Of a stretch of 64,000 nucleotides of DNA, positions 1 to 47,460 are shown piece by piece. Each line of letters begins with the position of its first letter. Positions within the stretch are counted from its first letter, which is position 1. This DNA comes from Cetorhinus maximus (lineage: Eukaryota). The notes beneath the pieces were generated by a model. It saw only the letters and a list, made by a program, of their open reading frames with translations. It was not told the DNA's origin and searched no databases. The translations under genes were made by a program, and so were the position numbers. The DNA lies in assembly GCF_964194155.1 (NCBI RefSeq), contig NC_135916.1, forward strand, positions 1,054,001-1,118,000, read 5' to 3'.

Positions 1-969
1 TGTTCACTCATAGGGTGGTGAACATGTGATTGAGTTGCATTCATTTTGTAACCTCCAGTATCTTGTATGTGAACGTATATATAATTCCCTCCATGTATCC
101 GTGATGTTTGCAAGAGTGGAACTAACTCTATTTTTAATATTTTAATGTGCTATCTCCAAAAGTGAGATTTCGTTCGAATCACTCAAAATCTGGAACCAAA
201 TGTGAAGTTCCAATTGATATTCATATAGTCAACTGCTACAAGTATGTTTTCCTTGTGTGTCGATTGGTGACATATTGCCTGACTGTAGATTTGGCCCTGT
301 AACATTCGGATTTTCCTCATTGTTATGTTTTTAGTGTATGTTTGTGGTTTTATCCCTGTATTTCATTCACTGGTACTTTGCATCAGATGGGGATAATTCA
401 TTGCTTCTCAGCGTCTTGTATAATCTGTGAGTTTGGCCATGGTTCTATAATTGTCAGTCTCTCAAACTGAATGTGAGTGTGTAATAATTCAGTCTTTAAG
501 AGCAACGAGCTGACAATGAGTGTGTGATTCATTCCACTGAACTGTGCATCTGGTTTGTATGGGTATGTTCCACTCTCTGCATATCTCTCATTGTCCTTTA
601 CAGTGCATGATTTGGGGATTAAATTGAACATGACAGTTTCCAATAGACGATGTGATTGTGGGGTTATTTCTGTATTTTTATGGTTTCAGCTATTCTATTT
701 GAATGAGATCTTTTCTGCCTCATTCAGATTCAGGTAGTGTAGTGAGTGTGGGATTTATTATAAAGCTTTCACACTTGGAAATTTGGGTGATTAACATCTG
801 CATCATGGATTTTTGCTCCCCAGGCACAGTGTATGTGGGGATAATTATGTAGTTGCCGTTCTCTGGTATGCTTTGAATTTATTTTTGTTCTTATAGCTGT
901 ATTTGATCTGTGTTTGAATGTGTGAGTAATTTTGCACCTGAGAATTCTGCCCATCTAAGTATATACAAC

Positions 970-1180
970 TTCTCTCTCCCCCCGCCCCCCCACCTTAAAC
1001 CAGCTTATATTTCACCTTTCTCCTAACTATGCTTCAGTTCTGCCGAAGGGTCGTTATGACTCGAAACGTTAACTGATTTCTTCTCCACCGATGCTGCCAG
1101 ACCTGCTGAGTTTTTCCAGGTAATTCTGTTTTTGTTTTGGATTTCCAGCATCCGCAGTAGCTTTTAGCTTTTTGTTTTTA
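970..1180 (+). mobile_element. Solo Penelope pLTR fragment; duplicate at ~41956-42166
   Basis: Near-identical to 27950-28147. Confidence 0.85.
1035..1075 (+). ncRNA. Minimal type I hammerhead-ribozyme-like motif in pLTR; duplicate at 42021-42061
   Basis: CAGTT-CTGCCGA-a-GGGTC(gttat)GACTC-GAAA-CGTT-AACTG; core deviates from CUGANGA at A6. Confidence 0.6.
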
Positions 1181-3067
1181 AGTAGGTATATTATTCAATC
1201 TGTATCTGTTTTTCTCCACTGTTGCAGGTAAGTGTGAGATAAGACTATATCTGGACTTTTAATGAAACGTGTTGGAATATATTTTTATGAATCCCTCAAC
1301 ATAGCAGTATTTGTTAACCTTTGGTTTAACCTATAACATTGGCTTCATGTGTTTTGTAGTCACAGGTTATATTCAATAGTTGCCTGGGATTTGTGGAATC
1401 ACATTTGATTTTTAGCTCTGTGAAAACAATTGTGAATATTTAATCAGATACACAGCCTCATATGTAATTTGTTCATTTTGTATAAAGGGATTGCTGTTGA
1501 ATCTTTACTGATGCTGCCATTTTTGGTGTGAAATATATAGATATGTCTAAATTCTAAGGGACGGTGCTGCAATTTATTCTGTCCCTTCCAATCAGTTATT
1601 TCTTGTCTAATGAGGCTCAGAATAATTAATTAATTTCTGACCAACGCAACACAATATAATTAAATCTGATATTTGGTGTGTTTTCTGTGAACATTTTGAT
1701 TGATGTATGCTCCTCTCATCTAGGTTACTGGAAATAAAAACAAACAACAACAATAAAATCAGACTCTCCTGCTCAGTTTGTATCTTGCATTGAAAAGTTG
1801 TCACTTCCCTTTGAAACAGTGTGGGAATGAACAATTAATTGGTTGTGACTGTGGACATAATGACCTGGAAGTTTCTCTGCTCTCAGTGAATGGTCCTGTA
1901 CCTAGCTAGTGTTGCAGCTAGCTCACTTTTTAACCTTGTTCATTTTGTGACTTTTGAAGTTGTCACTATTATCTACCTTTGTCACTAACATCATCATGCA
2001 GCAGGAATACCCATAGCACAGCTTGTGAGCTAAGATTTGTTTGTCTCTTTTCATGTTGTACCTTTCAACCATTATTCATTCCTGATATTTCGACTGCAGA
2101 TTGATTTATTAATTTGGAGGCCTGTACTATTATTTCAGTAATTTTTCCATGTAGAAATATGAAGGTGAGTTTCACTTTTGGAACACATGGATGAAAATAG
2201 TATTTTGCCATTTTTATTTGAACAGTGATATCCTTCTTTGCTGGACCACTCCTCTGATTGCATTGACAATCACTGGGATGCATTTAAGTATTTTATTCTG
2301 TATCTATTGTTTTCTGAGATGAAAAGGTGAAAGCTTTGTAACTGTCAATCTTTAAGTCTCATAACAATGCACATGTCGAATTTTGTTTTGTCTGATTTTT
2401 CTCATAAATAGTTAAATGCCAGGTTTGTTGTCATCTAAGGCTGTGTTTCTGTCTCCATCTGCCGGTTTTTTTTATGAGTGTGAGTTTTAAACTGTCGGGT
2501 GTGCTTTCACATATGTGAGTATGATTTCCGTTTCTTAATCTGCTGCTGTATTTATCAGTTTCTGGGATTCTTAATGTGACTGTGACTCAGTAACTTTCAG
2601 GTTCTGGTAAGTGATTGCTGGTGTTAGAATGTCCATGTGAATGTCTTGTTGTTTTACTTTCTAGCACTTCCTTACTTGCTATTGAGCTTTTTTCCCTCAG
2701 TCTCTCCATTAGTTTGTGGCATGTGAATGTGAGTGCTATTCTGTATCTGTCAATAACTGCATTGTGAGCGTGAGTCATAATTGCAATTGCCAGTTTTAGG
2801 TATGTGTCTGGAATGCAAATGTGAATTTTACACTGCAGTTCTCACTTTTGAATGTCTGAATGTATGTTTGAGATTACTTCACTGACTTTGACAATGTAAC
2901 TATGATTATTCTCAGTACATTTTCTATGAGTATAGCCTACATTCTTTATCTATTAGTGTCTTATCAGCAAATGTAAGACTTATTCAAAATCTGTCAGTAT
3001 TATAGTATTGTCATTGTGCGATTGATGATGTGGCTGTGCATGCCTGCTTTTATCTGTGTTTGGGTCT

Positions 3068-3127
3068 GTGTGAGAGACAGAGAGAGAGAGCATGTCTGAA
3101 GATGTGTGTGTGTGTGTGTGTGTGTGT
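3068..3127. repeat. (GA)n/(TG)n microsatellite; copy at ~44054-44110 is 6 bp shorter
   Basis: Visible. Confidence 0.9.
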
Positions 3128-3734
3128 TCATGGTGTTTTTTTTGTGTTTTCGTTCCTTCTGTCTCTCTAATGTGTTTATGGACTTATCTTTTTATTTGTC
3201 ATTGTTCAATATAGAAATGTGCATGTTGATTGGTACTCATAATTATCTGGCATGATGGCATGGATTCATTCTGTACATGTCCAATTCTTCCCTTTTCAAT
3301 TTTGATAGTCTTGGCTGTAAGCAGTAACTGTTAGGTTTGGTGTATGTAAGTTTGCATTTTATCAGTAGTTGACCTTTTCAGATATGAGACTGCGGTATTC
3401 AATCTACCCGCTCATTTCCAGTTTGTGTTGTGAGCATGTCTTTTACTTTGTTAAAGTGAACATGTAGTTTCTGAGACTCTGCATTTACAGTGAATCTGTT
3501 GTATGAATGCCGATTTTAGTCTGTACCAATTTGATTCAGTTTCTTGTTTTATTTTCGGTGCTCAAATCTCTGTTTTACAAGTGATATATTCCATTCTGCT
3601 TGTGTCAATTTTTGATGAACTGAACAATAGTTTTTGTGAGATTCTGTTGATATTTTGTATCTGAATATGGGATTTCCTTTGTACATGTCAGATTTTAGCA
3701 TGAAGGAATGTTTATCAACTGCAACTAAGCAAAG

Positions 3735-3960
3735 CCAAAATATTCTCGGCTGGATGTTGGAAACCTCAAAAAAAGGGAAGAAAATTGCTGAGAATACTGA
3801 GCAGGATTGTCAACATCTGTGGAGAAAAAGCTGAACTGCCCGTTATCTGAAATTCCTGATGTGATGGAAGGTCATTTGCCTGTAATGTTCACCCTCAATC
3901 TTTCTAAACAGTTGTTGCCGTCCCTGCTGAATATTTCCAGCATTGTCGGTGTTTTTTCCT
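3735..3960. mobile_element. Old palindromic pLTR-derived element; orthologs at ~21728-21962 and ~44715-44940
   Basis: aattgctgagaatactgagcagg...tgtggaga and inverted cctgctgaatatttccagcatt. Confidence 0.6.
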
Positions 3961-4803
3961 CCCCCTGTCTGTGTTAATTCCCAGCTGGTAAATATCACTC
4001 TGCACCTGACAGAGTCTGATACTTACATTTCACTTTTATTCTGACAGAATCTCCAAGTGCATTTTCCTCTCTGACTCTCATTTATGTGTGTGTCTGAATC
4101 ATTGTCGATTTTACGGTGAGCCTGTTAGCCGACAATATTTATGAATGATGGCCACCTTTCAGTTTTCCATTTAGTATGAAAGCATGAACCTATTTTCCAT
4201 GTCCCTCTCGGTTTATGGAATGGACTGATTTGTTTTGATCAGCAACTTAAAGTTTTTAATGCATGTTCATGTGTGTTTTTACAGTAGCCATCAAGATCAG
4301 CGATGTGTGTAGCCATGCTTCTCCTATTTTGAAAAGGCTTATAGAAAATTTGGTTTTATTCTGCATCTCTATGTCCCTGGAATGTGTCTGTGGTTTTACA
4401 ATGTAATTGTCTGTCTCTGTTATGGGAATGCAGGATAGTTCCGTGTCGGTCAGACTCTCCTCTGAGAGTGGTGTTATGTTATTCCCTGCTTTGTGAGTTA
4501 AGTTTTAACCATTTTTTGTTTGTAGTGATCTGTCGAAGTGAGTGTTTGTGACAATATTCCTCTGGCATGTCTATGCACGCCTCCATTAACAAAAATATAC
4601 TCTATCTTGATTTCTGATATTGAATAAGATTTTTGGAATGGAATTTAACTTGTTGCTTTGCGAGAACTTTGCATGTATTCATGAATAATTCTGCAAACAT
4701 TAATTGTCTGATATTTAAGTTGTAGCTAATGATCTACTCTTGTGACATGAATGGACTGCCCTTCAATCTGATAATGTTTGCGATTTTGGACTGAAATTGG
4801 TGC

Positions 4804-5296
4804 TGTTGTGCTTTCTTCTAAGAATCGAATACAGTGACAAAGATACAAGTTTAGGATTGTTTATTAAAGGGAACAACAGGGAGGGTCTGCTCCCTTTGAA
4901 TGCCTAAAACAGAACTCTACTGATTACAGGATAACAATCTTTTTTAAACACTAAACCGTTCACGTACACATTACACTATTCTAATTCCAATCTTGGCAGT
5001 ACATAATCACATGACAATCAGATGCCGCCAGTCCGCGGAACATACATTTACTTTCCCAAGCAGGGCCTCTTCATCTCGTTCTAGCCTGGCTCTATCCCTG
5101 ATACTCTTTGTCATTACACTGATGTGTTTATCTTCATCCCTCTTCTATCTCCTAACCAGTTAATCCCTTATGATCCCAAAGGTCTCCCTAGAGAGAGCTG
5201 CTGATACCAGCCCTTATGGTGTACAAGTTTTCACTGGAGAATTTTGCTGACCTTTGGTTTCACTAAAAACATAGAAATCGCTGCTTACCTCTTACA
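4804..5296 (-). mobile_element. Solo LTR (~493 bp); duplicate at 45804-46296
   Basis: TGT...ACA ends, flanks GTGC/GTGG, minus-strand AATAAA near 4860, absent from paralogous site ~24308. Confidence 0.7.
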
Positions 5297-5998
5297 GTGG
5301 GTCTACCATTCAGCAGTACCGAGTAGCAGTGTTTTGTGGGGAATATAATTCAGTCTCCCCTGTGTGTTAGCCTACTGGATTGATCATGTGTATCAGGGTT
5401 TGAGTTCAATTCGAGTCTGACTATTTCTGCTCTGGGTGATGGTCACAGTGATGTTCTGTCTGTATCTGTGCACTCTTGGAGTAGGATCGTACCTGCTGCC
5501 AGTTAGAAGGAGATAGCTGCACCTCTGTGTTGGCTGGTGGAACTTGAGATTGAAACTGACCCCTTCATTAACCTGCCAGAGAGGAAGAAAGATATCTCCA
5601 GTAAGGCAAAATCAGCTGAGGTCAGTAAAAGGCAATAGATCAATGTAATATTTCAACTGATAATCAATTTCAAAAATACTGTACATATCATGGCGGACAA
5701 CGAAAAAACTACAGTGTCTGATTCCACTTCTAACTATTGAGTGAGATTCAGAATCAACCCGCATCTGCACTGCTCCAAGTGTGTCACTACGCGGGCCCAG
5801 AGATATTGGTACAGGACAGATTTCAATTTCCAGCTCCCTTTGTAAGAACCGCCAACTCAATCTAACTGTGGAAGGTACAATGTTTCTTTGAGACGCCTCA
5901 GCTGAACAGCTGGTGCCTGCAACACGTGTCGTTAACATTACTGCTCCACTCCTTACTCTCCGTCTGTTTCCACGATTCACTGTCCAAAAGCCAACACG

Positions 5999-6460
5999 TT
6001 GTGTGAATCAGCAGCTAAACTTGGAATATGCATTACAGGATTGAGGGGGGATATCCCAATAGTTTTCAATTGCAGCTTGCTCAGGTTCTGTCTCCCTCAG
6101 CAGGGCCACACACAGCCCCAGAAAGGCCTCTCCCCGACCACCAGCTCACTCCAAGTTCCGGAACACGTTCCCGCTCCGCTCCGCCTCTTACAAACAGCCC
6201 CCCGGTTCCCCCTGAACTTACCCCGAGTCAATGATGATTTCTGTGTCCACACTGACAAACCGGTGCCCTGCTGGAATCAGAACGCTGTTTACTCGCTTAC
6301 CCGGGCCCCAGTATTTCCATTTCCGTCTGTTTGAAACAAAGGTCTTCCGCTCGCTGAGTGAAAGGACGTCAAGGGCAGTGGTTGGTGGGAAGGGAAGCGC
6401 GCATGCGCCCGACTAGTCACCGAGAAATTCCAAAACGCAGGGCTGCAATGCGCATGTGCT
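5999..6460 (-). promoter_or_regulatory. Conserved CpG-rich promoter/first-exon-like element with NRF1 sites
   Basis: GCGCATGCGC 6399-6408, second near-site ~6449; minus-strand GTAAG donors at 6300 and 6221; highly similar copies at 24989 and 46999. Confidence 0.55.
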
Positions 6461-7319
6461 GTTGGAAACTAACTAAGAACAAAACCAGGTCATCTGGTCC
6501 TTCCCCATGTCAATTTCCTCAGCCTTGAGCATAGGAATTGGAATGTGGGGAACGGGCAGAGACGTTACGAGCAGGAGGGCCATCCCTGTATTAAATCCAA
6601 ACTGGGCGTCTTTGCTGTTCATTCGACGGTCTCCGCAAATTAATCCACATGTCGAATAGGTCTGTTTGCTGTTATAGCTCAGAACTTAATATCAGATCGT
6701 AAAAGTCTCAGGTTAATATAATCAGATTGAAAATGTCAGTCACTGACTGTCGTATTCAACAATTTTAGTCGAAGATTTCCCGAGAGTTCCAGAGTTTATA
6801 GAATGTTATATTTCATTATTATTGCCTCAACACCACTCAGTTTCCTGGACTGTGGGACAGAAATGTATCTGCCTCTCCTCCAATGTTAATGAGAGATGAG
6901 GCCTGGTATTTCGCACCGCTGGGGGATCTATAAGCCTTATCGATCAGCTTCAGAATATTCAGTGTTTCAAAAAGAAAACCTCTCAATCTTCTAAACTCCA
7001 ATGAAGATTATTCCAACTTGATCATGATTTCCTCACCAGTCAACAACTGGAAGCTGCTCATGAACATTCCCTGAACTGTATCAAGGGATCGATATTATTC
7101 AGTTGTCCCCCATCCCTCTACTGCTGTTGATGTGCATGTTACTAATGTTACTGATAGGATTATATAAACTGATACTCACACTCCTCCCATGTGAGGTGAG
7201 GGACTGTCACTGTTCATTCTCCTCTCAGAAATTCAAGTATGACATTTCATTAGATTATCTCCAGTCAAACATCGAATTCTGCTCTGAAAAACTCTGTCAC
7301 TGTCGGGAACGTGACGATG

Positions 7320-10300
7320 GGAGAAGTCATCGCAGCCAACGCGACTCAGGAGGGAATCGAGGAGGACCCACTGTCAAAGAATGGAATAGTCCCAAGCATT
7401 ACATTGCTGTAGTGTTTCCATCCCTCCCTCATCCTCAAACCTAAAAAACAGAGAGAGGGGAAGAGGCAGTGTCTCCAGGAGTGCACCAAATCTGCGAGGG
7501 ATACTCTTCTGAAAGTGGAATTTAAAGAAAAAGCAGCTGATTGCTGAGTAAATCCTGGGAGCAGACTCGGAGGGAGGAGAACCGAAGCGGTGAGTGTAAA
7601 CCTAGCTTACCTTGAGGATTCGCAGTCTTGTCTCTAGGGAGCAGACTCGGAGGGAGGAGCAGCAGAGTGGTGACCTCGGGGCACAGAGTAACTGAAGCCA
7701 AAACTGAAAAAGTGACGTCACATGAAAGCTGTGACCTGATTGGTTGGTAGGAAATCTGCACCAAATTTGAAAAAAAAAACACGGCAAAGCTAATTAATAA
7801 ATTAATTGTCTAAGTACAGATGGCTGGGCAGGTGATGTGCTGTAGCTGTATGATGTGGGAGCTGGCAGATCCCAATGCGAGCCACAGTGACCACATCTGC
7901 AGCAAGTGTTGTTGCTGGAGGAATTCCGGCTCAGAATTGATGAGCTGGAGTCCGAGTTCTGGACACTGCGGCTCCTTCGGGAGGGGGACAGTTACCTGGA
8001 CGCTTTGTATGAGGAGGCGGTCTTACCTGGTAGATTAAGTACCTCAAATCCGGTCAGTGGTCAGGGTCAGCAGGGTGTGACTGCAATTGAGGCAGGTAGA
8101 GGGATCCTGTGTTCAGTAAGTGAGGACCCTCAGCTCTTGACCTTGTCCAACAGGTACGACGTACTTGCTTCCTGTGTGGATGGGGAACAGGGCTGTAGGG
8201 AGGATGAGCCAGCTGACCACGGCACCGTGGCACAGGAGGCCCTTCAAGAGGGGGGAGCACAGAGACAAGTGGTAGTTGTAGGGGATTCTATAATTAGGGG
8301 AATTGATAGATTCCTTTGTAAGCAGGATCGAGGGTCCCGCATTGTATGTTGCCTGCCCTGTGCCAGGATGAAGGACATCTCTGACCGGCTTGAAAGGATA
8401 TTGGAGAGGGAGTGGGAGGATCCAGTTGTTGTGGTCCACGTCGTGACAAATAACATAGTTCAGACTAGGAAACAGGACCTGTTTGGGGATTATCAGGAAC
8501 TAGGAACTAAATTAAAGAACAGGTCCTCAAGGGTTATAATCTCTGGATTACTACCCGAGCAACGTGCAATTTGGCATAGGGACACAAGAATAAGGGAAGT
8601 AAACACGTGGCTAAAGGAGTGGTGCGGGAAAGAGGGGTTCCATTTCGTGGGGCACTGGCATCAGTATTGGAACAGGAGGGATCTGTACCATTGGGACGGT
8701 CTCCACCTGAACCGATCTGGGACCAATGTTCTAGCGAAAAGCGTAAGTAGAGTATTCAACAGGACTTTAAACTAGAAAGTGGGGGGGGAGGGAAGGGTAA
8801 AACTGCAAGAAATATGACTAATGGGAAACAGAGCAGCAGGTTAGCATGTGGGGTGGTGGATTCAACTTCATGGAAAATTATGAAAAAACTGAAAAGAAAG
8901 GAGAGCCCAGGAGAGGCTATTAAAGTCTCCAGAACACAAAATAGGACAGAGTGTTTGGAAAGGGCTAGGAATCTAACTTCAAGCACATCAGATAAAGGGA
9001 CGACAATGAGAAAGGGGACGGGAAATACAGGACTGAAGGTGTTGTATCTGAATGCACACAGTATACGAAATAAGGTAAATGAGCTTGTGGCGCAGATTGA
9101 AATTGGCAGGTATGATCTGGTGGGCATTACGGAGACATGGCTGCAAGGGGATCAGGGCTGGGAGCTAAATATCCAAAGATATACAACCTATCGAAAAGAT
9201 AGGCAGATTGGCAGAGGAGGTGGGGTTGCTTTGTTAGTAAGAAATGAAATTAAATCGATAGCAAGAAATGATGTAGGGTCAGAGGATGTAGAATCTGTGT
9301 GGTTAGAGTTGAGGAACCACAAAGGTAAAAAAAAACATAATGGGATTTATGTACAGGCCTCCGAACAGTAGTCAGGATGTGGGCCACAAGATACACCAGG
9401 AGATAGAAAAGGCGTGTAAGAAAGGCAAGTTTACAGTGATCATGGAGGATTTCAATATGCAGGTAGAATGGGAAAATCAGCTTGGTAGTGGATCCCAAGA
9501 AAAGGAATTTGTGGAATGTCTACACGATGGCTTTTTGGAGCAGCTTGTGGTGGAGCCCACTAGGGAACAGGCAATTCTAGATTTAGTGATGTGTAATGAG
9601 GCAGATTTGATAAGGGAGCTAAAGGTGAAGGAACCCTTAGGAGGAAGTGACCATATTATGATAGAATTTACCCTGCAGTTTGAGAGGAAAAAGCTGGAAT
9701 CAGATGTAACGGTATTACAGTTGAATAAAGGCAACTACAGAGGCATGAGGGAGGAGCTGGCCAGAATTGACTGGGAGATAAGCCTAGCAGGAAAGACAGT
9801 GGAACATCAATGGTAGGAGTTTCTGGGAGTAATTTGGGAGAAAAAGCAAAAATTCATCCCTAGGAAGAAGAAGCATACTAAAGGGAGGACGAGGAAACCA
9901 TGGCTGACAAGGGAAGTCCGGGACAGCATAAAAGCTGAAGAGAAAGCATACAATGCGACGAAGAGCAGTGGGAAACCAGGGGATTGGGAAGCCTACAAAG
10001 ACCAACAGAGGACAACTAAAAAAGAAATAAGGAGGGAGAAGATTAAATATGAGGGTAAACAAACAGTAATATAAAAGAAGATTGCAAAAATTTTTTTTAC
10101 ATATATAAAGGGCAAGAGAGAGGCAAAAGTGGATATTGGGCCGCTGGAAAATGACGCTGGAGAAGGATTAGTGGGGAACAAAGAAATGGCGGAGGAACTG
10201 AATAGGTACTTTGCGACAGTCTTCACAGTGGAAGACACGAGTGACATGCCCAAAGTTCAAGAGAGTCGGGGGACAGAGGTGAGTATGGTGGCAATTAACA

Positions 10301-11305
10301 ATAAGAAGGGGCTAGGAAAACTGAAAGGTCTGAAGGTGGATAAATGACCTGGACCAGATGGATTACACCCCAGAGTTCTGAAGGAGATAGCTGAAGAGAT
10401 AGTGGAGGCGTTAGTGGTGATCTTTCAGTAATCACTGGACTCAGGGATGTTCCCAGAGGACTGGAAAATCGCTAATGTAACCCCCTTGTTTAAGAAGGGA
10501 GTGAGGCAAAAGTCGGGAAATTACAGGTTTAATAGCCTGACTTCGGTCATTGGTAAGATTTTAGAGTCCATTATTAAGGATGAGATTTCAGAATACTTGG
10601 AAGTGCATGGTAAAATCGGGCAAAGTCAGCATGGTTTCATCCAAGGGAGGTCATGCCTGACAAATCTGTTAGAATACTTTGAGGAGGTAACGAGTAGGTT
10701 AGACAAAGGAGAGCCAATGGATGTTATGTACTTGGACTTCCAGAAGCCTTTGACAAGGTGCCACACAGCAATTTTGGGCCCCGTTTCTCAGGAAGGATGT
10801 GCTGGCCCTGGAGAGGGTCCAGAGGAGGTTCATGAGGATGATCCCAGGAATGAAAAGCTCAACATATGAGGAACGTTTGAGGACTCTGGGTCAATACTCG
10901 ATGGAGTTTAGAAGGATGAGGGGGGATCTGATTGAAACTTACAGAATACTGAAAGGCCTGGATAGAATTGACGTGGGGAAGATGTTTCCATTAGTAGGAG
11001 AGACTAGGACCCAAGGGCACAGCCTCAGAGTAAAGGGCAGACCTTTTAGAACAGAAATGATGAAAAACTTCTTTAGCCAGAGAGTGGTGAATCTATGGAA
11101 TTCAATGCCACAGAAGGCTGTGGAGGCCAGGCCACTGAGTGCATTTAAGACCGAGATAGATAGGTTCTTCATTGGTAAGGGAATCAAAGGTTACGGGGAG
11201 AAGGTGGGAGTATGGGGTTGAGAAACTTATCAGCCATGATTTAATGCGGGGCAGACTCGATGGGCCGAATGGCCTAATTTCTGCTACTATGTCTTATGGT
11301 CTTAT
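7320..11305 (+). mobile_element. CR1-clade LINE, near full length, decayed, internal RT deletion
   Basis: ORF1 Cys motif + SGNH esterase (GDSIIRG...DGLHLN); ORF2 APE (YLNAHSIRNK, GITETWL, SDH) and RT fragments; (tcttatgg)n tail; absent from the orthologous site near 29190. Confidence 0.93.
7820..8772 (+). pseudogene. CR1 ORF1 (Zn-finger + SGNH esterase), frameshifted near 5' end; copy at 48820-49772
   Basis: ORFs 7820..8038 and 7906..8775 join into one protein. Confidence 0.8.
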
Positions 11306-12251: not shown

Positions 12252-12908
12252 ATGACCGATACTGCAGCCGCCGAAACGGCTCCTCCAGCCGCTCCCGCCG
12301 CCCAGGTCAAGACTCCCAAGAAGAAGAAGAAGGCGGCTCCCCGGAGCAGTGCAGCCGGTCCCAAGCTGGGCGAGCAGATCCTCAAGGTTGTGGCGGATTG
12401 CAGCGATCGCAAGGGGATGTCGCTGCCCGCGATCAAGAAGGCGCTGCGCGGCAATGGGGTGGATGTGGAGAAACTCGGCTCCCAGATCAAGCAAAGCATC
12501 AAGAGGAATGTGAAGAATGGCTTCCTGGTTCAGGTCAAGGGCACGGGCGCCTCGGGCTCCTTCAAAGTCCCTAAGAACCCAACCCCGGGGAAAGTGGGAA
12601 AGAAGGCGAAGGCAGCAGCTGGCAAGAAATCTCCAGTGAAGAAAGCGGCAGCCAAGAAGGTGACAGCAAAGAAAGCAACGGCCAAGAAGACTCCAGTCAA
12701 GAAAGCAACGGCCAAGAAATCTCCAGTCAAGAAAGCAGCGGCCAAGAAATCCCCAGCGAAGAAAGCAGCGGCCAAGAAAACAGCCAAGAAGGCGGCAACT
12801 CCCAAAAAGCCGGTGAAGAAAGCAGCCCCCAAGAAAAAGTCTCCGGCCAAGAAGGTGACGGGCGTCAAAAAAGTGGCGATAGGGAGGGCCAAGCCCAAAA
12901 CGAGATAA
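12252..12908 (+). CDS. H1: Linker histone H1 (218 aa)
   Basis: Globular domain ending KGTGASGSFKV, K/A/P-rich tail with S/TPxK repeats, intronless, H1 box upstream, stem-loop downstream. Confidence 0.97.
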   Translation: MTDTAAAETAPPAAPAAQVKTPKKKKKAAPRSSAAGPKLGEQILKVVADCSDRKGMSLPAIKKALRGNGVDVEKLGSQIKQSIKRNVKNGFLVQVKGTGASGSFKVPKNPTPGKVGKKAKAAAGKKSPVKKAAAKKVTAKKATAKKTPVKKATAKKSPVKKAAAKKSPAKKAAAKKTAKKAATPKKPVKKAAPKKKSPAKKVTGVKKVAIGRAKPKTR

Positions 12909-16299: not shown

Positions 16300-18928
16300 A
16301 CCAAGTCGGTCAGAGAAAGAGCTGCGATCTATTGTTAAAAGATGTCACCTCTTCTGCATATAATTTCCATTTTTTTTCACCCTATACCTTTCCTTTGCTA
16401 CCTTTGTTGGGCTTTGGAGAGACGGTTATTTTATTATTCCAGGAACGTTTTCCCAAGTAGTGACAATTGAGGAAAACACACATCCCATTGGCTTCTGCAC
16501 ATTATCAGTCAGATCTCTGTTTGAGTGACCAATGTGGAGGATCCACGCATTCACTCATTTTATACCTTCGGGAGGAATGGCGGTGCGGTCAATGCTTATT
16601 GGTCCATTTTATTACAGCTGCTAATGTTCTTCCTATTACCAATCAGATCCCTGCATGATTCACCAACGTGGAGACGTCACGTGGTTGACGTCCGAAAGTA
16701 ATGGCGCCAAATCGTCAGTTACCGACCCATTATATATTTCAAATTTGCAAGACCGCCAAAAAAATACGGCACAAAAATCGTAATAGCTAATTCCCTTTTT
16801 AAATTATAACAATGCGCGATTCACCCAACTCTCTCCATCTTTTGGACATCCTGCAGTTTACCTGTATCTGTTAGTTTCTGACTTTTGAGTGCGGAGTTTC
16901 ATGTATCTGACATGAAGCAGAAATTAAAGCGCCAATTTTGCAGGAACCGAGCCTTTGTTTTATTGAACATTGAAAAGCCCGCCTAAACGTGTGTAAAACG
17001 AATAATTAATTTGATACAGAATATTGCGTTAACATATAACACAGTCATTTCCATAGTTTAAAAGATTGGTCTCCCTTATTGCACTATATCATATTTGATC
17101 ACAAGCCCCAAATTGGCTATTAAAATCCGGAATCCATTCGGGTTTAATCTCGGACCGTTTTTCCAGTCCTCTTAGTCTATGTTCAACATATTCTGGCATG
17201 TGAATATGGGCTTTTGTTAGGACTCTCTGCACCTTGTATATCATTGTCCATTCTTTGAATATGATGCTCACTTTTCAACTTTTTAATGTAGCATGTGAAC
17301 ATGGATTTTAATCAGGACTTATCAGTTGTTGACTGTGTATAAGTGTCATATTCCTTCTGTATGTATCAGCCTCTGGTGCTGTGTATGAATCTTGCTAACC
17401 TTTGTTATGTGCCTGTTGTGGTTCTGGAAATGGCTGCAGAATTAATACTCTAAATGTAAATTTTGGACACTGTGGGCATTGAATTCGTTTTTTTTTCACC
17501 ATATCTGTTAAGAATTGATGAATTGTGTGTTTTATTATGTGTTTTCACTTAGTTGAATACTGTGATAGAGTTGAATTAATCCTGTACCCACCAGTGTGTT
17601 GTATTGTATGTGGAGGAATACATTTTGCCCTCTGTGTAGGACTCTGTACTGCTATGCATGGAAGAGTGCATTCATTCTATCTGCAATATTTTCTGGTACT
17701 ATCCGTGAGAGGGATTCCATCTGAATCTGTCAATATCTGGAACTAAATGTGAGAATGAAGTTGATACGGATCCAGCCAAGCTGTTTGAGAGCAATATTTT
17801 TTTGTGTGTCAGTCAATCTGGGCAATTTTATGTCATTCTGGGTTTTTGGCTCTGCGTCCTTAAGACTTTTCTAAAAAGATTTGTGTATGTCTGTGGCTCC
17901 TGCTCTCCATTTAATTCCCTGCTACTCTGTATGTGGTTGAATAAAGCATTGCTTCCCAATATATTGTTAGTTTCTTGCTCTATATTTATTAGTCACTTAA
18001 ATTGATGGAGTGTGTATTCACTCATTTAGCTGACAGTGAGTGTGATTCATTCAAATTATCCCTGCATCTGCTATTGCATGGGAATGTGCCACTCTCTGCA
18101 TGTCTTTCAGTGCCTAGTACAATGCATGATTTTGGGATTAAATTGTACATGACAGCGTCCGGTAAGGTATGTGTTTGTGGAGTTATTTCTATAATGTTAT
18201 GGCCTCTATGATTCTATATGAATGAGATTATTTTGGTATACTTCAGTTTCAGGTAGGCTAAGTGAATGTGGGGTTCATTATTTATCTTTCAGCCTTGGTG
18301 CTTTCCAAGAGTAAGTGCTAAGGGTTAACAAGAAGTGTTCAGAGAACTTACATTATGATTCATAGTGAGAATATTGATATGGCACGTGTTGTGTATTAAG
18401 GTCTGTATTCATTAAAATTATATTTTACCTTTATTTCAGATATTGTATGAGATCTTTGGTGTGGAATTTAATATGTTGTTCTGTGGGGCATCTGGGTACA
18501 TTCTTAGCTTCACATATACAGCTGATTGAAATGCACAGATTTAATGCTAAGACTCCACTCTTGTGAAAGGAATGGATTGTCTTGCAATCTGAAAATGTTT
18601 TTGGATAAGATTGATGGGCCTACCATTCTGTGACACTCAATGAGTGTGAATTGGGGATAATATTCTGTCTCCCCTGTCGTGTTTGAATGTTGTATTGAAC
18701 ATGTCTGCCCATTTTTGGTTTAACCTATAACATGGGTTCTACCAATGTTATAGCCATAGGTTATATTCTGTAGTTGCATCGGAGTTCAAGAATGGTACTC
18801 AATTTGTAGCTCTGTGAAAACAATTGTGAATAGCTACATCCCCTTCAATCAACTATATAGCCTCACATGTAATTGATGCAGTTTGTAGTCAAGGAATTAC
18901 CATTGTACCTTTATTCATGCAGAGCTTT

Positions 18929-19410
18929 TCATAGAATCACAGAATCACACAGTGCAGAAGAGGTCCTTCAGCCCATCGAGTCTGCAACAACACGTGAGAA
19001 ACACCTGACCTACCTACCTAATCCCATTTACCAGCACTTGGCCCATAGCCTTGAATGTGATGATGTGCCAAGTGCTCATCCAAGTACATTTTAAAGGATG
19101 TGAGGCAACCCGCCTCCACCACCCTCCCAGGCAGTGCATTCCAAACCGTCACCACCCTCTGGGTAAAAATTTGTTCCTCACATCCTTCATAAACCTCTTG
19201 CCCCTCACCTTGAACTTACGCCCCCTCGTGACTGACTCTTCAGCCAAGGGGAACAGCTGCTCCCTATCCACCCTGTCCATGCCCCTCATAATCTTGTACA
19301 CCTCGATCAGGTCGCCCCTCAGTCTTCTCTGCTCCAACGAAAACAACCCAAGCCTATCCAACCTCTCTTCATAACGTCAATGTTTCATCCCAGGCAACAT
19401 CCTGGTGAAT
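18929..19410 (-). mobile_element. CR1 LINE 3' fragment
   Basis: ORF LGLFSLEQRRLRGDLIEVYKIM; tandem tail at left end. Confidence 0.9.
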
Positions 19411-20899
19411 ATTTTGTTAGACTGCTATGAAATATATAGCCCTGTCTAAATTCTGAGGCACTGATTTGCATTTTATTAAGTACCTTACAGTGAGCTATCT
19501 TATTTTCTGTTCTGGCTAAGAGCAGTTAAATAATATCTGATGAGAATGAAAGAGTGAATATGATATTTGTTGTGTATTCTGTTAATCCTTTGATATTCTG
19601 CTGGATTAGATGCTAGATGGATATATAAAGCAAGTTAATGAAGACTCACCGGATCTGTTTGTCTCTTGGATTGAACAGTTGTCTCTTCCCTTTGAAACAG
19701 TGTGGGAATGAATGATTATTTATTTGTGACAGTGGACATAATGACCTGGCAGCATCTCTGTTCTCTGTGAGCGATGCTGCACCTACCTTGTGTTGGAACA
19801 AGCTCACTTTTCATCTTGCTTATGTTATAACTTTTATAGTTATCACTATTATGTATCCACCTTAGTTACTAGCCTCATCTGTCAATGCATAGCATTGTTT
19901 GTGAGCTGAGATTTGTTCACTTCTTTTTAAATTGATCCTTTCAACCATTTTATGTTTACTATTGTTTCCACTCCATATTAATTTATTAATTTGCAGGCCT
20001 GTACTATTATTTGAGTAATGTTTCCATTTTTAAAAATGAGGCTGAATTTCACTTTCATAACACATGGGTGATAAGATTATTTTGTCATCTTATTTGAATT
20101 AGGATCCCCTTCTTTTCTGCAATTAATTCTATGAATTGCATGTAAAGTCATTGGGATACATTTAGGTATTTTAACCTGTATCAAATATATTTTTTTCTCT
20201 GGAATGGAAGTGTGATGTTGGCCTGTAACTCTCAGGCTGTATTTGCAATTACACTGCACGTTAATTTTGTTGTGAGTGAATGACTTTTTAAAAAATCCAT
20301 CCATGTCTTTTTTTTTTAGCATAAGATGTGTTTCATTCTCTATTTTCCAGTTTTCTTTTAGATAATGAGTGTAAGTTCTGTATAATTGTGTGCATTTTCA
20401 GGTATGTGAGTATGATTAGTTTTTCTCCTCCAGTTGTATTTATTAATTTCTCAGAGGCTAAAATGTGACTTTGCCATGGTACCTGTCAGTTACTGGTAAG
20501 TGAGTGCTGGTGTTACACTGTCCCTGTGAATATCTGGTGTATGAGCATTACTTTGTAGCACTTCATTACTTGCAAGTGACTTTTTTTTCTCCCTCTATCT
20601 GTCAGTTTGTGGCATGTGAGTTTGAATGTGTGTGTTGGGCTTACTTGGCATTTGACTGTTTTGTTACGTGTCTGCTAAGTTAATGTGAATATACACTTTT
20701 TTTTTCAGTTTTTAAAATGTAAACATGTGTTTGAGTCTTATTCCCGGTCTCTGACATGAAAATGAGGAAATACCATAAATGTTTCAGATTTTTTTTCTGT
20801 ATGTGTCACATATATTCTTTAATCATTCGTCTCTTGTAAAGAAATTCTAAGATTTACTCAGATTCTCTCAGTAAAGTTATGTCATTGTGTGATTGTAGA

Positions 20900-21160
20900 A
20901 CTGTGTGTGAGCCTGTCTGTGTGTGTGTGCCTGTCTGTGTGTGTGCGCCTGTCTGTGTGTGTGCGCCTGTCTGTGTGTGTGCGCCTGTCTGTGTGTGTGC
21001 GGGGGTGTGTGTGTGTGTGTGTGTGTGTGCGCCTGTCCTTGTGTGTGGGTGTGTGTGCCTCCCTGTGTGTGTGCGCCTGTCTGTCTCTTTGCGTGCCTGT
21101 CTGTGTATGCGCTTGTCTGTGTGTGTGCGCCTGTCCTTGTGTGTGGGTGTGTGTGCCTGT
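20900..21160. repeat. TG-rich micro/minisatellite (18-bp unit gtgtgtgtgcgcctgtct)
   Basis: Directly visible tandem units. Confidence 0.95.
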
Positions 21161-23489
21161 TTATGCTCCTTTTGTCTCTCTTATGTGTGAATGGACTTTT
21201 CTCTCTATCTGTCATTTTTCAATATGTACTTGTGCACATTGACTGGCACTCACAAGTATCTGGCATGGTGTTAAAGGCTAATTTTGTACATATCCAGTTT
21301 TAGCCTTTCTCTTAGGATAGCCTTGGCTTTAAGTTGTAATATTCGGCTTCTGGTATGGAAGTGCACATTTTACCTGTACCTGACCCTTTTAGATATGAGA
21401 TTCTGGTACTGAAATTGTCTGCTCGTTTCTAGCCTCTGATGTGAGCATGGCTTTTACTTTTGTTAAAGTTAGCATTTTTAATGAGACTCTGCATTTACTG
21501 TGAATTTCAGTATCTGATCTACGATTGTGGATTTTAATCAGTCCTGATTTGTTTCTGTTTGGGATTGATATCTCTGTTATAGGAGTGATATATTCCATTC
21601 TGTTATTGTCTCTTTCTAATGAGGTGAACGATCCTTTTTGATCAGAATCTGTTTAATTTGGTGCCTGAATATGGGATTTGCTTTGCAATTGTCAGATTTT
21701 GACATGAAGGAATGTTTATAATCTGTAGCAAAAGCAAAAACAAAATATCTACAGGTGGATTCTTGAAATCTCAAGAAAAAGGAAACACAATTGCTGGGAA
21801 TACTGAGCAGGCCAGACAACATCTGTGGAGACAAGAGCTGAATTACCCTCCACCTGAAAATTCTGATATCAGAAAAGGCCATTGAACTGTGATGTTCACT
21901 CTCATCCTGTCTCCACAGGTGTTGGCTTCCTTGCTGAGTATTTCCTGCATTGTTGGTGTTTCTTCCTCCCCCTGTACGTGTTAATTTCCAACAAGTGAAT
22001 ATGGCATCACTGATCACCTGCCAATGTCTGACAAATATGTTTCACTTCTATTCTGACAGGGTTTCAACGTAGAATTTGGTGTGCGTGTGTGCACATGTGC
22101 ATGTTTCTAGAAAGGAAGAAATTTATTTTTTCTGCACTTTACATAGAATGCTATGCGAATGTCAGTTCAGCCTGTATCTGTCACTTTTTAACATGTTACT
22201 ACGAGTCTTATTCTTTACCTGTCTATGAATGGGGATTTTAAAATGCACCTAGTTATTTGCTGCTGTGTGACTTTTTTCTTTTATAGATGTTTGGAATTAA
22301 TTATGGGTTTTTAAAAAAAATATATACGTAATTCAAAAATTATCTGAAAGAACATTTCTAAATCGCCATCACAAAAAGTGCAATCAGATTCAACTTTTAC
22401 ACATGGATCAAGAGTTGCTTCTATACAATCAATGAATATTACAATCAATTCAATATGGTCATTACAGGCAGTCAGACAGCGCAATGATATTGGAGTTATC
22501 AACATACATCATGTTGCACTTTTGAGGTGTTTCAATACTATTACTATTCAGTGCAGATATTTTTTTGTGAGCCGTACAGCTTTACTCTGGGTATTTAACT
22601 CTCGGTAATGCACTTGTGGCTATTACTCTGCACCTGCCAGTGCCTGACATGTGAGGATGCATTTTGCATTCACTGTTGCTGACATGTAAAGCAAATTTTA
22701 CTACTTAACTCTCAGTTACTGGTATATAGATGTGCAGATTTTATTCTGTATCTGTAATTCTGTGATATGTCAGTTTGATTCATTTTCCTGTTGTTTGGCT
22801 CAGGGTCAGAAATATGAGCATGGAAAAAAAATATGTTGAAACACTTAGGCTATTTTAAATGAATGAGAATTTAATTATTTGCTTTCAATCCCCAGAATGA
22901 GAATGTGCCCTATGCTTATCATATTCTTGTATGTGAGTATTGTCTTTCCTCCAGGTCTGTATGCACCTTGTAGGTCATGGTCGGTTTTGCTGTGAACATG
23001 TCAGCCTGTATTACTTGATTGTGATGTTCACATTGCAGCTTTCAATTTAGTGTGTGAGCATGGACCATTCGCTCCCTCCCCCCAACCCCTCAACCCAAAC
23101 CTACAGATTTTGATGCATGTTCATGTGTGATTTTACCGTAGCTATCAACGTCTGCTTTCTGGGTATCCATTTTCTTCCTATTTTTAAAATTCTGTTATGG
23201 GAAACTTGATTTTATTCTACACCTCTCTATCGCTGGTATGTGTCTGTGGTTTTACAATGTAAGCATCTGCCCCTGTCATGGGAATTCAGGTTTCTTCTGT
23301 ATCTGTCAGTCTCTCCTATGACAGTGCTGTAATGTTATTTGCCGTACTTGTCAATATCTGCTTTGTCAGTTAAGGTTTAACCTATCTTGTTTGTAGAGAT
23401 CTGTTGATATAACTATTAGTGAGTATATTGACCTGGCACGTGATGTGTATGTGTGTCTGTCTTAATGAATATGTACTTTATCATTATCA

Positions 23490-24115
23490 GGGGGAGGCGA
23501 TGGTGTTGTGATGTTGTCATTGTTGTCACTATTAATCCAAAGACCTAGGGTAATACTCTGGGGACCCGGGTTCGAATCCTGCCGAGGTTTGGCGGATTGT
23601 GAATTCAATAAAAATCTGGAATTAAAAGAATAATGGTGACCATTGTCGATTGTTGTAAGAACCCACCTGGTTGACCAATGCCGGAAACCTGTTGTCCTTA
23701 CTTAGTCTGGTCTACATGTGGTGTTGTGTTAGACCCACTTGGCCACTCACTTGTAATAAACTGCTAAAAAGTCACAAAAATGGAATGGAATCAGATGGAC
23801 CACCCGACACTGACTGAGGCACCGCAAACAAAAATGACTAAATTCAGCCCTGTCGACCCTGAAGGTAGATGGGAACACCTCCAGCTAGAATTTCCACTCC
23901 AAGTCACTGCACGATCCTGACTTGGAAATATATCCTGTTCCTTCACTGTCGCTGGGGAAAAATTTTGGAACTGCCTCCCTAACAGCAGTGTGGGTGTACC
24001 TACACCACGTGGACAGCAGGAGTTCAAGAAAGCAGCTCACCACCACCTTCTCAAGGGCAACTAAATGGTGGCACAGCCAGAAAAGCAAACATCCCGTGAA
24101 TGAATTTAAAAAAAG
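23490..24115 (+). mobile_element. tRNA-derived SINE joined to a LINE-type 3' end
   Basis: B box GGTTCGAATCC ~23569; ends tgaatgaatttaaaaaa; interrupts sequence that is contiguous at 18430-18450. Confidence 0.7.
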
Positions 24116-24988
24116 ATATTATATGGGATCTTTGGTGTTGAATTTATGGTGTTGCTTTATGAATGCTGGGTGCACTCAAGGATTAATTCTGTAAATTTCA
24201 ATCAGCTTTAATACCTGGTATTTAAATTACAGGCGATGTTCTACTCTTGTGACATGAAAGGGCTGCCCTTCAATCTGATAATGGCTGTGATTGTTGACTG
24301 CAATTGGTGGACCTGCAATTCAGCAGTACTGAGTAGGAGTGTACTGTAGTAAAATTATTCCACCTCCCCTGAGTGTCTGACCATTGGATGGAGCATTTGT
24401 ACCTGGGTTTGAGATCAATTTGAGCCTGACTATTTCTGTTCTCGGTGATGGTGGAGCTGATGTTCTGTCTGTATCTCTGCACTCTCGGAGTAACATCGTG
24501 CCTGCTGTCAGTTAGAAAGAGGTGGCTAGACGTTTATTTTTCCTGGGATATCATCAGCTTGAAACTGATCCCTTCATTGATTTGCCTGGAGGAAGAAACA
24601 TAAGTCTTGTAACACAAAATCAGCAGAGGACATTGAAAGACAATAGGTCAACATAATCTTTCAACTGACAATAAATAAAAAAATATATATCTAGATGCAA
24701 AACATAACGATACAATAAATACTACAGTGTCTGATTCCACGTCAGCAACCTGCTTTGGTAGTTTTCAAGCAATTGAGTGACACTCAGAAACAATCCACAT
24801 CTGTATGGCTCCAAGGGTGACACTCCCCGAGGATACAAAGACAGTTCAGATATCAATATCCAGCTCTCAGCCGGTGCTAAAATGTTTATATCTTAATAGC
24901 TGGTGCCTCCAAAGCGTGACCCCTACATGGTTACTCTCCTCCTTACTCTCTGCCTGTTACCACTGTTCACTGTCCAAATGCCGACAAG

Positions 24989-25480
24989 TTGCATGAATCA
25001 GCAGCTATACTTGGAATATGCATTACAGGTTTGAGGGGAGAAAATCCCAATAGTTTACAATTGCAGCTTCCTCAGGTTCTGTCTCCCTCAGCAGGGCCAC
25101 ACACAGCCCCAGAAAGGCCTCTCCCCGTCCACCCGCTCACTCCAAGTTCCGGAACACGTTCGCGCTCCGCTCCGCCTCTTACAAACAGCCCCCGGTTCCC
25201 CCTGAACTTACCCCGAGTCAATGATGATTTCTGTGTCCACACTGACAAACCGGCGCCCTGCTGGAATCAGAACGCTGTTTACTCGCTTACCCGGGCCCTA
25301 AGATTTCCATTTCTATCTGTTTGAAACAAAGGTCTCCCGCTCACTGAGTGAAAAGCCCTCAAAGTTCAATTCTTGGGAGAAATGAGGGGCGCATGCGCTC
25401 TTCCAGCCATGTCTGAGAAAACTGAGGGCAGCAATGCGCAAGCGCTTCCCTGGAACAGACGTCACAGATAAGACGTCATT
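24989..25480 (-). promoter_or_regulatory. Second copy of conserved NRF1 promoter/first-exon-like element
   Basis: GCGCATGCGC 25389-25398, GACGTCA x2, donors at 25290 and 25211. Confidence 0.55.
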
Positions 25481-31008: not shown

Positions 31009-31665
31009 ATGACCGATACTGCAGCCGCCGAAACGGCTCCTCCAGCCGCTCCCGCCGCCCAAGTCAAGACTCCCAAGAAGAAGAAGAAGGCGGCTCCCCG
31101 GAGCAGTGCAGCCGGTCCCAAGCTGGGCGAGCAGATCCTCAAGGTTGTGGCGGATTGCAGCGATCGCAAGGGGATGTCGCTGCCCGCGATCAAGAAGGCG
31201 CTGCGCGGCAAAGGGATGGATGTGGAGAAACTGGGCTCCCAGATCAAGCAAAGCATCAAGAGGAATGTGAAGAATGGCTTCCTGGTTCAGGTCAAGGGCA
31301 CGGGCGCCTCGGGCTCCTTCAAAGTCCCTAAGAACACAACCCCGGGGAAAGTGGGAAAGAAGGCGAAGGCAGCAGCTGGCAAGAAATCTCCAGTGAAGAA
31401 AGCGGCAGCCAAGAAGGTGACAGCAAAGAAAGCAGCGGCCAAGAAGACTCCAGTCAAGAAAGCAACGGCCAAGAAGACTCCAGTCAAGAAAGCAGCGGCC
31501 AAGAAATCCCCAGCGAAGAAAGCAGCGGCCAAGAAACCAGCCAAGAAGGCGGCAACTCCCAAAAAGCCGGTGAAGAAAGCAGCCCCCAAGAAAAAGTCTC
31601 CGGCCAAGAAGGTGACGGGCGTCAAAAAAGTGGTGATCGGGAGGGCCAAGCCCAAAACGAGATAA
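31009..31665 (+). CDS. H1: Linker histone H1 (218 aa)
   Basis: Near-identical to 12252..12908; stem-loop at 31723. Confidence 0.97.
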   Translation: MTDTAAAETAPPAAPAAQVKTPKKKKKAAPRSSAAGPKLGEQILKVVADCSDRKGMSLPAIKKALRGKGMDVEKLGSQIKQSIKRNVKNGFLVQVKGTGASGSFKVPKNTTPGKVGKKAKAAAGKKSPVKKAAAKKVTAKKAAAKKTPVKKATAKKTPVKKAAAKKSPAKKAAAKKPAKKAATPKKPVKKAAPKKKSPAKKVTGVKKVVIGRAKPKTR

Positions 31666-34654: not shown

Positions 34655-35119
34655 TATAAATCCTTCTTATCTCTAACACTGTAATGTTCGCTGTCGAAAA
34701 TATTTCACGCGAATTGAAGACTCCCATTTCGATTTAAACCTGATTTTCTGCGGCTCCTTCACCCGATCTCTGACATGTCCTCTACTCTTAGACTGAAATA
34801 TCGAGAACAACAAAGAAATTGTCTTGAAATCTCACTTTGGGGTTAAGCTGGGGAGCAGGGGGTGTATTCCTTTGGAAAATATTTTTATCTTACCCAAGCG
34901 GGGCTCGGAAATTTCCTGATCAGAACGGACACACAAACACAGTTTCATTCCTCTGACTCTCCCGCCCACTTCAAACACTCTCTTACACAATGTTCACATT
35001 TAGAGGTTCATTGGCAACAAGATGAACAATTGTAAATGTCTCGGTAGAGATTTCCTTCTCTTTTCGATCTTTGCTCCGGTTTCTATTTATTTGCTAACAT
35101 TAAACACTCTGAGGCATTG
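34655..35119 (-). other. Inverted copy of H1 upstream region
   Basis: Reverse complement of ~11557-12038. Confidence 0.9.
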
Positions 35120-35205
35120 GAAGAAGGGAAAGATCCCGAGCAAATTGTAAACCTCTAAACTCAAAGGTTCTTCTCAGAGCCACCCACATTTCACATGAAA
35201 GAATT
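35120..35205 (+). pseudogene. Orphan H1 3' end with decaying stem-loop (CDS deleted)
   Basis: Matches H1 3'UTR (aagaagggaaagatcccgagc...); stem-loop GGTTCTTCTCAGAGCC at 35166 and HDE both mutated. Confidence 0.88.
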
Positions 35206-38527: not shown

Positions 38528-38921
38528 TCACTTGGTCTTGGTGGCTGCAGAGGCGCCGGTTTTCTTGGGCAGCAGCACGGCCTGGATATTAGGCAGCACC
38601 CCGCCCTGAGCGATGGTCACCCCTCCCAGCAGCTTGTTGAGCTCCTCGTCGTTGCGGACGGCCAGCTGCAGGTGCCTGGGGATGATGCGGGTCTTCTTGT
38701 TGTCCCGGGCCGCGTTGCCGGCCAGCTCGAGGATTTCAGCCGTCAGATACTCCAGCACGGCGGCCAGATAGACCGGGGCTCCGGCACCCACTACGCTCAG
38801 CGTAGTTCCCCTTCCTCAGCAGCCTGTGAACGCGGCCCACCGGGAACTGCAGTCCGGCCCGGGAGGAGCGAGACCTGGCCTTGGACCGAACTTTCCCACC
38901 GGTCTTTCCTCTTCCAGACAT
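38528..38921 (-). pseudogene. H2A: Histone H2A with 1-bp insertion frameshift (pseudogene or assembly error)
   Basis: 394 bp vs 393 bp in the 57736 copy; extra base at 38792 (cccacTacgctc vs cccacacgctc); split into two ORFs; promoter and stem-loop intact. Confidence 0.88.
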
Positions 38922-40029: not shown

Positions 40030-41010
40030 AAAGCAGCGTAAAAAACAGGGAATTACAGACTGATTAGCCTACCATCAGTGGTAGACTTAATACCAGAGTC
40101 CACTCTGTGATAATAAGAGACTTTGAAAATGTCAAATGGATTGGACAAAGATAGCATGCGTTTATGAAAGGGAAATCATGTTTGACAAACCTATTGTAGC
40201 TTTTTTGGGAATTAAATTGCAAAGTAGATAAGGGAAAACCAGATGATGTGGTCTATTTAGATTTTCAGAAAGCTTTTGTTAAATGCCCACTTAACTGGTT
40301 TGTGTACCAAATTGAAGTGCATGGGATGGGGGTTTGGATTGGCATGTACAGTGAAAGGATTAGTAAACAGGAAAAAGAGAGCAGGAATAAATCAGTCTTT
40401 TTGAGAATGGCAGAAGTTGACAAGTGGTGTGCCACAGGGATCAGTGCTTGGGTCCCAGTATTCAGAATAGACAAGAATGATTGTGATGAAGGAAGCAAAG
40501 ATAATATTTCCAAGGTTGCTGATGACACAAATCTAGGAGGGAATGTGAGAGATGAGGAGGAAGTTAAAATTGCCCAAGGAGATTTAGATAACTTGAGTGA
40601 GTGGGAAAAAAACATGGCAGATGGAGTATAAAGTGGCTAGATGTGAATCCATCCACTTTGGTACGAAAAACAGAATGGCAGAGTATTATTTAAATAGTGA
40701 TAGGTTGGGAAATGTTGATTTACGAAGAGACCTGCGTGCAGCACATGATCACCAGGCTGATTCATGGGCTGGCAGGATTGTCACATGAGGAGAGAATGGG
40801 CCGATTCGGACTGTATACACTCAGTGATTGTAGAATGAGAGGGCAAGTATTTGAAATACATGAAATAGTGACAGCGCTGGTCAGGCTGGGTGCAGGGATG
40901 ATGTTTCCTCTGGCTGAAAGGCCTAGCACATGTGTTCAATCTCAGGATACGTTGTAGTCCATTTCGGGCTGTGTTGAGGACAAAGTTGTTGACTCATAGG
41001 GTGGTGAACA
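40030..41010 (+). mobile_element. Old degenerate CR1 RT fragment
   Basis: VYLDFQKAF, SKVADDTNLGG, WQMEY. Confidence 0.85.
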
Positions 41011-46998: not shown

Positions 46999-47460
46999 TT
47001 GTGTGAATCAGCAGCTAAACTTGGAATATGCATTACAGGATTGAGGGGGGATATCCCAATAGTTTTCAATTGCAGCTTGCTCAGGTTCTGTCTCCCTCAG
47101 CAGGGCCACACACAGCCCCAGAAAGGCCTCTCCCCGACCACCAGCTCACTCCAAGTTCCGGAACACGTTCCCGCTCCGCTCCGCCTCTTACAAACAGCCC
47201 CCCGGTTCCCCCTGAACTTACCCCGAGTCAATGATGATTTCTGTGTCCACACTGACAAACCGGTGCCCTGCTGGAATCAGAACGCTGTTTACTCGCTTAC
47301 CCGGGCCCCAGTATTTCCATTTCCGTCTGTTTGAAACAAAGGTCTTCCGCTCGCTGAGTGAAAGGACGTCAAGGGCAGTGGTTGGTGGGAAGGGAAGCGC
47401 GCATGCGCCCGACTAGTCACCGAGAAATTCCAAAACGCAGGGCTGCAATGCGCATGTGCT
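46999..47460 (-). promoter_or_regulatory. Third copy of conserved NRF1 promoter/first-exon-like element
   Basis: Matches 5999-6460 (offset 41000). Confidence 0.55.

Follow-up and report, generated by a model that had tools for sequence, protein, structure and literature searches.

A candidate non-coding, spliced transcription unit embedded in the histone gene repeats of Cetorhinus maximus

The stretch of 64,000 nucleotides analyzed here (the window) is part of a histone gene cluster on contig C39 of the 3.99-Gb genome of Cetorhinus maximus. The units of this cluster are approximately 20 kb long and carry H1, H4, and H3 on the same strand, with H2A often on the opposite strand. H2B is represented by three genes only in 864 kb of C39, located at the edge and the centre of the cluster, and is absent from the units. 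A T-rich spacer of 8–13 kb extends from the H2A promoter to the next H1, and the block described in this study lies at its end. The H1 gene divergent from the first copy of the block is located at 12252–12908 on the plus strand; the other H1 genes of the window are at 31009–31665 and 53858–54514.

The first copy of the block is a homogenised island at 6000–6355 with a core at 6065–6235. Its observed/expected CpG ratio is 0.7–0.8, versus 0.26 in the array downstream. As had been claimed from the letters of the window, the island is far more alike between units than its flanks: positions 6000–6349 are 95–99% identical among six diverged copies, themselves chosen by their likeness to the block, versus 70–91% at 5300–5999 and 71–83% at 6350–6649. 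In unbiased unit-to-unit profiles, the block is the sole run of windows with at least 90% identity in the spacer of about 9 kb between lineages, the lone exception being a single 90–93% window at approximately 22960 common to some lineages. The second copy, with diverged flanks, lies on the minus strand at 24989–25398 (island to 25352, donors at 25290 and 25211, NRF1-type site at 25389–25398, and a predicted second exon from 24585), and the third, also on the minus strand at 47000–47408, is a recent duplicate of the first. Because units 1 and 3 (1–10768 and 40987–51766) are 99.4% identical duplicates, the three copies represent two independent ones, and the window offers one independent comparison. 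The block with its copies is confirmed as a real feature.

The sharp 5′ edge of the island is formed by a TCACT-N-AGTGA palindrome (6350–6362, minus strand), which is the predicted start region. Upstream of it are two sites that we take to be NRF1-type: a proximal palindrome at 6399–6408, perfect in 29 of the 30 cluster copies and aligned in the families of a second cluster on contig C32, and a distal site at 6450–6459, whose position is kept in all families aligned. The sequence GCGCATGCGC is found at 6399, 25389, and 47399 and nowhere else in the window. The sequence-only reading had described perfect NRF1 palindromes abutting the block; there is one perfect palindrome per copy, but the distal site is imperfect. 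It had also listed GACGTCA, which is no fixed feature of the block since its position varies (6365 versus 25458/25472). The two minus-strand donors are present, with their first intron bases at 6300 and 6221, but they are not strictly invariant: donor 2 reads GTAAGT in 27 of 30 cluster copies, and the donor-1 pattern is matched in 26 of 30 and missing from the terminal copy. Two strong donors on one strand of the block and none on the other is a count of two reached by 28 of 1000 shuffles. On the minus strand, the predicted first exon would be either short (6301–6356, 56 nt, ending at donor 1 and holding a 7-codon mini-frame) or long (6222–6356, 135 nt, ending at donor 2), and a pyrimidine tract with CAG at 5573–5594 is the predicted acceptor, from which the second exon would start at 5572.

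A whole-genome search with a 21-letter core pattern, one mismatch allowed, returned 45 matches, all at C39:0.98–1.92 Mb, and close copies in this cluster occur about once per histone unit. The block had been placed upstream of every intact H1. This is accurate for 27 of the 29 cluster-type H1 genes in 864 kb of C39, at distances of up to 6.6 kb; among the 32 blocks in the same sequence, 27 have such a divergent H1, but three have no adjoining H1, one has its H1 12.7 kb away, and one is at a segment end. The proposed divergent spacing of about 2 kb is the natural state of insert-free units (2.0–2.1 kb), but its support from all three copies shrinks to two. Other perfect palindromes in the C39 segments number three; all are parts of diverged block relatives that lie close to histone genes (one of these relatives aligned at its start only).

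The second histone cluster, on contig C32, carries a sister family of at least 91 copies that is about 65–67% identical to the block. The palindrome plus start motif has 107 matches in the genome, 82 of the 100 matches listed being at C32:8.7–21.5 Mb, and the core motif has 132, of which 100 are listed, 91 of them on C32; reversed-pattern controls for the module and core searches gave 0. All 30 C32 loci fetched were matched by the block profile over approximately 600 bp (E 6e-38 to 1e-59). Of these 30 loci, 29 were examined for neighbours, and all 29 have a histone gene within 10 kb: a divergent H4 no more than 1.5 kb away in 17, an upstream H1, H2B, or H4 at up to 10 kb in another nine, and H2B about 6.5 kb downstream in three. 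Among four further copies, three likewise lie within 10 kb of a histone gene; the fourth, the terminal copy, has none in the 20 kb downstream. Since the sister copies adjoin H4, H2B, or H1, the element is linked to histone units in general and not, as had been supposed, to H1 specifically. The proposal that the histone repeat has an additional member that is not a histone gene is borne out by about one copy per unit on C39 and by homologs beside the histone genes of C32. A dispersed transposon was rejected, as the close copies are confined to one cluster and the sister matches listed are on C32 and C39. Two matches to the downstream sequence are found on the small contigs C450 and C1068.

An alignment of the families brings the start palindrome and both NRF1-type sites into register. 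CpG ratios are 0.58–0.78, and the invariant columns are more clustered than in 4999 of 5000 column shuffles, a null that ignores rate variation. Identity between the clusters is 66–67% in the block, which does not exceed the 67–69% of the array, and overall sequence constraint is therefore weak. The donor of the candidate C32 intron corresponds to no donor in the window's family, and donor positions differ between families. This shift of the donors while the promoter motifs persist suggests that the maintained feature is the promoter or the act of transcription. The C39 cluster, whose units lack H2B, and the C32 cluster, whose units are rich in it, may complement each other.

Downstream of the block on the minus strand, a decayed tandem array with a spacing of 40–46 bp occupies 60–5430, interrupted by inserts; in unit 2, profile hits on the same strand extend over 16400–24440. 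A profile trained on C32 sequence gave 39 sense hits in unit 2 versus 3.7 in local shuffles, and 30 versus 2.6 in unit 1, while TRF and autocorrelation did not detect the array. The 41-bp array of the earlier reading is thus real and the block is oriented into it, but it is decayed and its period is not fixed at 41 bp. A decayed array also follows the block on C32. Transcription of the T-rich plus strand was considered and rejected, as the T-richness is explained by the composition of the repeat itself.

Suggestive evidence for splicing comes from the sister family. In run X4 (type unrecorded, 163 million letters), two loose contig ends are located at 1071 and 1411 of the C32 copy L148. The first joins the donor at 1067/1068 to sequence found past the acceptor at 1412/1413; in the second, the acceptor is preceded by sequence from before the donor. 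Together they imply the removal of a 345-nt GT-AG intron (1068–1412), the joined form of which has no copy in the assembly. At 9 and 15 letters, the loose ends fall short of the 31-letter bridging standard; they come from the ends listed, beside 90 more that possibly include those of DNA run X3, and their continuation fits five of the 30 C32 loci exactly. As AG|GT is common to the two splice sites, a deletion in DNA through microhomology is a possible alternative. For the window copies, no junction is present among the loose ends listed (352 more exist), an unspliced 522-nt contig (5561–6082) spans the predicted acceptor, and there is no cover at 6336–6763. On L148, X4 depth is zero at 500–623 and 11–21 in the predicted intron versus 57–205 on either side; X4 cover is sparse beyond approximately 3720, whereas X3 covers all bins, and run X5, which we guess to be RNA, covers 793–1096 and two array patches. 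Contigs cannot show starts or levels, and these depth patterns therefore carry no evidential weight. Nor does the fact that none of the runs on record as RNA contains 5300–6700. The claim of a promoter and first exon of a spliced transcript is partly supported, by the promoter anatomy and by the splicing indicated in the sister family; for the window copies, transcription and splicing are predicted.

No shared long ORF was found in the spliced models of three C39 lineages and two C32 copies. A Pfam search covered 77 of the 198 candidate frames, namely two window ORFs and 75 of the 196 near diverged edge copies, and gave three reverse-transcriptase hits and one SCAN hit, the latter upstream, not downstream, of the nearby promoter. 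The possibility that the block is the 5′ exon of zinc-finger genes was discarded: a motif scan covering 864 kb of C39 and approximately 400 kb of C32 did not turn up any frame with at least two C2H2 fingers. A structured small RNA gene was rejected because there is neither an Rfam match nor a stable fold, and the spacer as an intron-split H2B because the units hold no remnant of H2B. The single metagenome match is non-homologous.

We propose, with a probability of roughly 0.68, that the block comprises a CpG-island promoter together with the first exon of a spliced Pol II gene, present in many copies and probably non-coding, which was amplified with histone units in two clusters. NRF1 and promoter-proximal donors have established roles at promoters. 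A promoter unit would have been captured in an ancestral histone unit and then amplified along with the histone genes. NRF1 would bind at both palindromes, transcription would start near 6356 on the minus strand and run away from H1, and a promoter-proximal donor (6300 or 6221) would splice to the acceptor at 5573, followed by a long second exon through the decayed array. Gene conversion would hold the 5′ 350 bp near-identical, as it does the histone genes, and the unit may be maintained for an active, unmethylated promoter with a local open-chromatin role in each unit and not for its RNA sequence. The block is an old passenger unit linked to the histone genes and is probably transcribed and spliced; its job, if it has any, is probably local, which is pure inference.

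A stronger version, in which shark-type units contain an ancient, dedicated lncRNA gene whose transcription or repeat RNA organises the histone loci in cis, appears doubtful. A lncRNA that opens the units or seeds the histone locus body would be kept once per unit through rearrangement.

It is unlikely that the block is instead an inert hitch-hiker, namely a dead promoter relic of the ancestral unit that owes its likeness to conversion only and gives no RNA from the C39 cluster. Conversion itself is plain. In 29 copies from three flank lineages, the core has no fixed differences and eight shared polymorphisms at 158 sites, while the adjoining flank has 167 fixed differences and six shared polymorphisms at 581 sites, and core divergence is 4–5% regardless of flank divergence. 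The near-identity of the block between units is gene conversion, as in the histone genes. Because the block is homogenised in this way, the likeness of its copies is no proof of selection, and its earlier reading as a sign of conservation has to be given up. These counts are what a relic would show, as are the equal divergence of block and array between the clusters and the lack of a window junction among the X4 ends listed. On the other hand, comparable islands are otherwise found at the histone genes alone, as had been noted from the window: in units with flanks below 85% identity, four-fold sites are 99.2% identical in H3 (71 pairs), 98.9% in H4 (154 pairs), and 96.8% in H2A (39 pairs). The H3 island begins at the TATA box, and that of the block just inside its promoter motifs. 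The block thus behaves like a gene and unlike the remaining spacer. CpG content and both NRF1-type sites are retained in all families, the module survives unit rearrangements on both contigs, and the splice-like joint of the sister family also speaks against a relic. Islands of conversion can point to unannotated genes within a diverged array, even though such likeness is not selection.

An improbable alternative is a distal promoter whose leader is spliced onto H2A (C39) or H2B (C32 type B) 6–13 kb downstream, which would yield replication-independent histone mRNAs. Many C39 units do have H2A beyond the array on the strand of the predicted transcript, and the examined type-B units of C32 have a co-directional H2B downstream. 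However, several C39 units retain the block and have lost H2A, and the array contains several AATAAA signals. Two type-A units of C32 have no co-directional histone gene before the next module or within 90 kb, so the RNA there would not be a histone leader.

We give little credence to the RNA itself acting, as a piRNA-type small-RNA precursor or a repeat-bearing nuclear scaffold at histone loci. More than 130 copies, and a predicted second exon that consists of a strand-specific repeat array in both clusters, fit this idea, but the array diverges like unconstrained spacer, Rfam hits above threshold are histone stem-loops only, and the predicted fold of the block is not more stable than that of shuffles (z +0.5 to +2.4). 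It is very improbable that the first exon codes for a small protein beginning with MEILGP: the 7-codon frame is the same in 25 of the 30 copies, and units 1 and 2 differ in it at synonymous positions, but it lies inside the converted tract, the frames after the predicted splice differ (29, 23, and 23 amino acids in the three lineages computed) with no long ORF in common, and no such frame occurs in the C32 families.

In vertebrates, NRF1-type CpG-island promoters that have a 5′ splice site close by are a recognised class. The proposed promoter resembles them in being TATA-less, with NRF1-type sites about 40–100 bp upstream and a strong donor and G-rich sequence downstream; it differs in its copy number, its tie to histone units, and the lack of a coding gene found downstream. 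Zinc-finger gene clusters have shared 5′ exons, and the block likewise combines a multicopy NRF1-type promoter with a non-coding first exon, but without the C2H2 frames in the regions scanned. In newts, satellites are linked to histone loci. Lampbrush-loop satellites of newts are described, in the part of the source available, as transcribed by read-through from upstream gene promoters (PMC5615363). As far as that account goes, both are tandem repeats adjoining genes, transcribed in the newt and predicted to be so here; the shark array, in contrast, is a decayed one within each unit and is served by a dedicated predicted promoter of its own that bears splice donors. A 2026 review of more than 250 species (PMC13525598) describes 5S genes in the histone repeats of Artemia and Mytilus, an rRNA cistron in the boll weevil, and both in Potamopyrgus; in the portion available, rRNA genes are the only non-histone members named for histone repeats, and the word "shark" does not occur in the main text. 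By that portion, the block shares with histone/rRNA repeats a non-histone multicopy unit fixed in the histone repeat and evolving in concert, but it is not 5S or rRNA according to Rfam, shows the promoter anatomy of Pol II genes together with splice sites, and is not known to have a product. Our literature search, with most subscription papers and supplements outside its scope, found no description of such a unit; new here are the counts for conversion and for linkage and the candidate C32 junction. If true, this would be a novel type of passenger, a spliced Pol II unit present in nearly all units sampled from two clusters that differ in organisation, and it would provide a candidate cis-element, open to testing, through which vertebrate histone genes might be coordinated. 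If its RNA is inactive, it would be a curiosity of cluster evolution.

Several minor observations concern the clusters themselves. Many tRNA calls (14 in 200 kb, some weak) lie among the histone units at C32:8.96–9.03 Mb. Histone clusters occur together with tRNA loci in a ray (10.1101/2025.06.08.657570), similar to tRNA-rich C32, and the accessible part of that report describes no unit of the block's kind. Partial relatives of the block, containing its 3′ part only, are located just past H1 in type-B units at C32:11542899, 12972177, and 16463044. In the window, an H2A promoter is retained at 16560–16800 although the H2A gene is deleted in that unit type, the H2A at 38531–38921 is apparently frameshifted, and 34659–35121 is an inverted fragment of the H1 region. 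A truncated, diverged H4 copy is present at C39:1109229–1109474, and a divergent H1-like gene with 59% identity lies outside the repeat at C39:883476–883934. Cluster orientation flips at approximately C39:1.655–1.696 Mb around a 41-kb gap that contains a lone H2B, a tRNA-Gly call, a diverged relative of the palindromic promoter, and the SCAN-domain frame, which is probably retroelement-derived. An H2B motif has 361 matches in the genome, the first 100 listed being scattered over C1–C15. Six such loci (L111–L116) comprise the coding region and short UTR ends only, some of them broken, with no stem-loop within 200 bases downstream, and they look like retrocopies.
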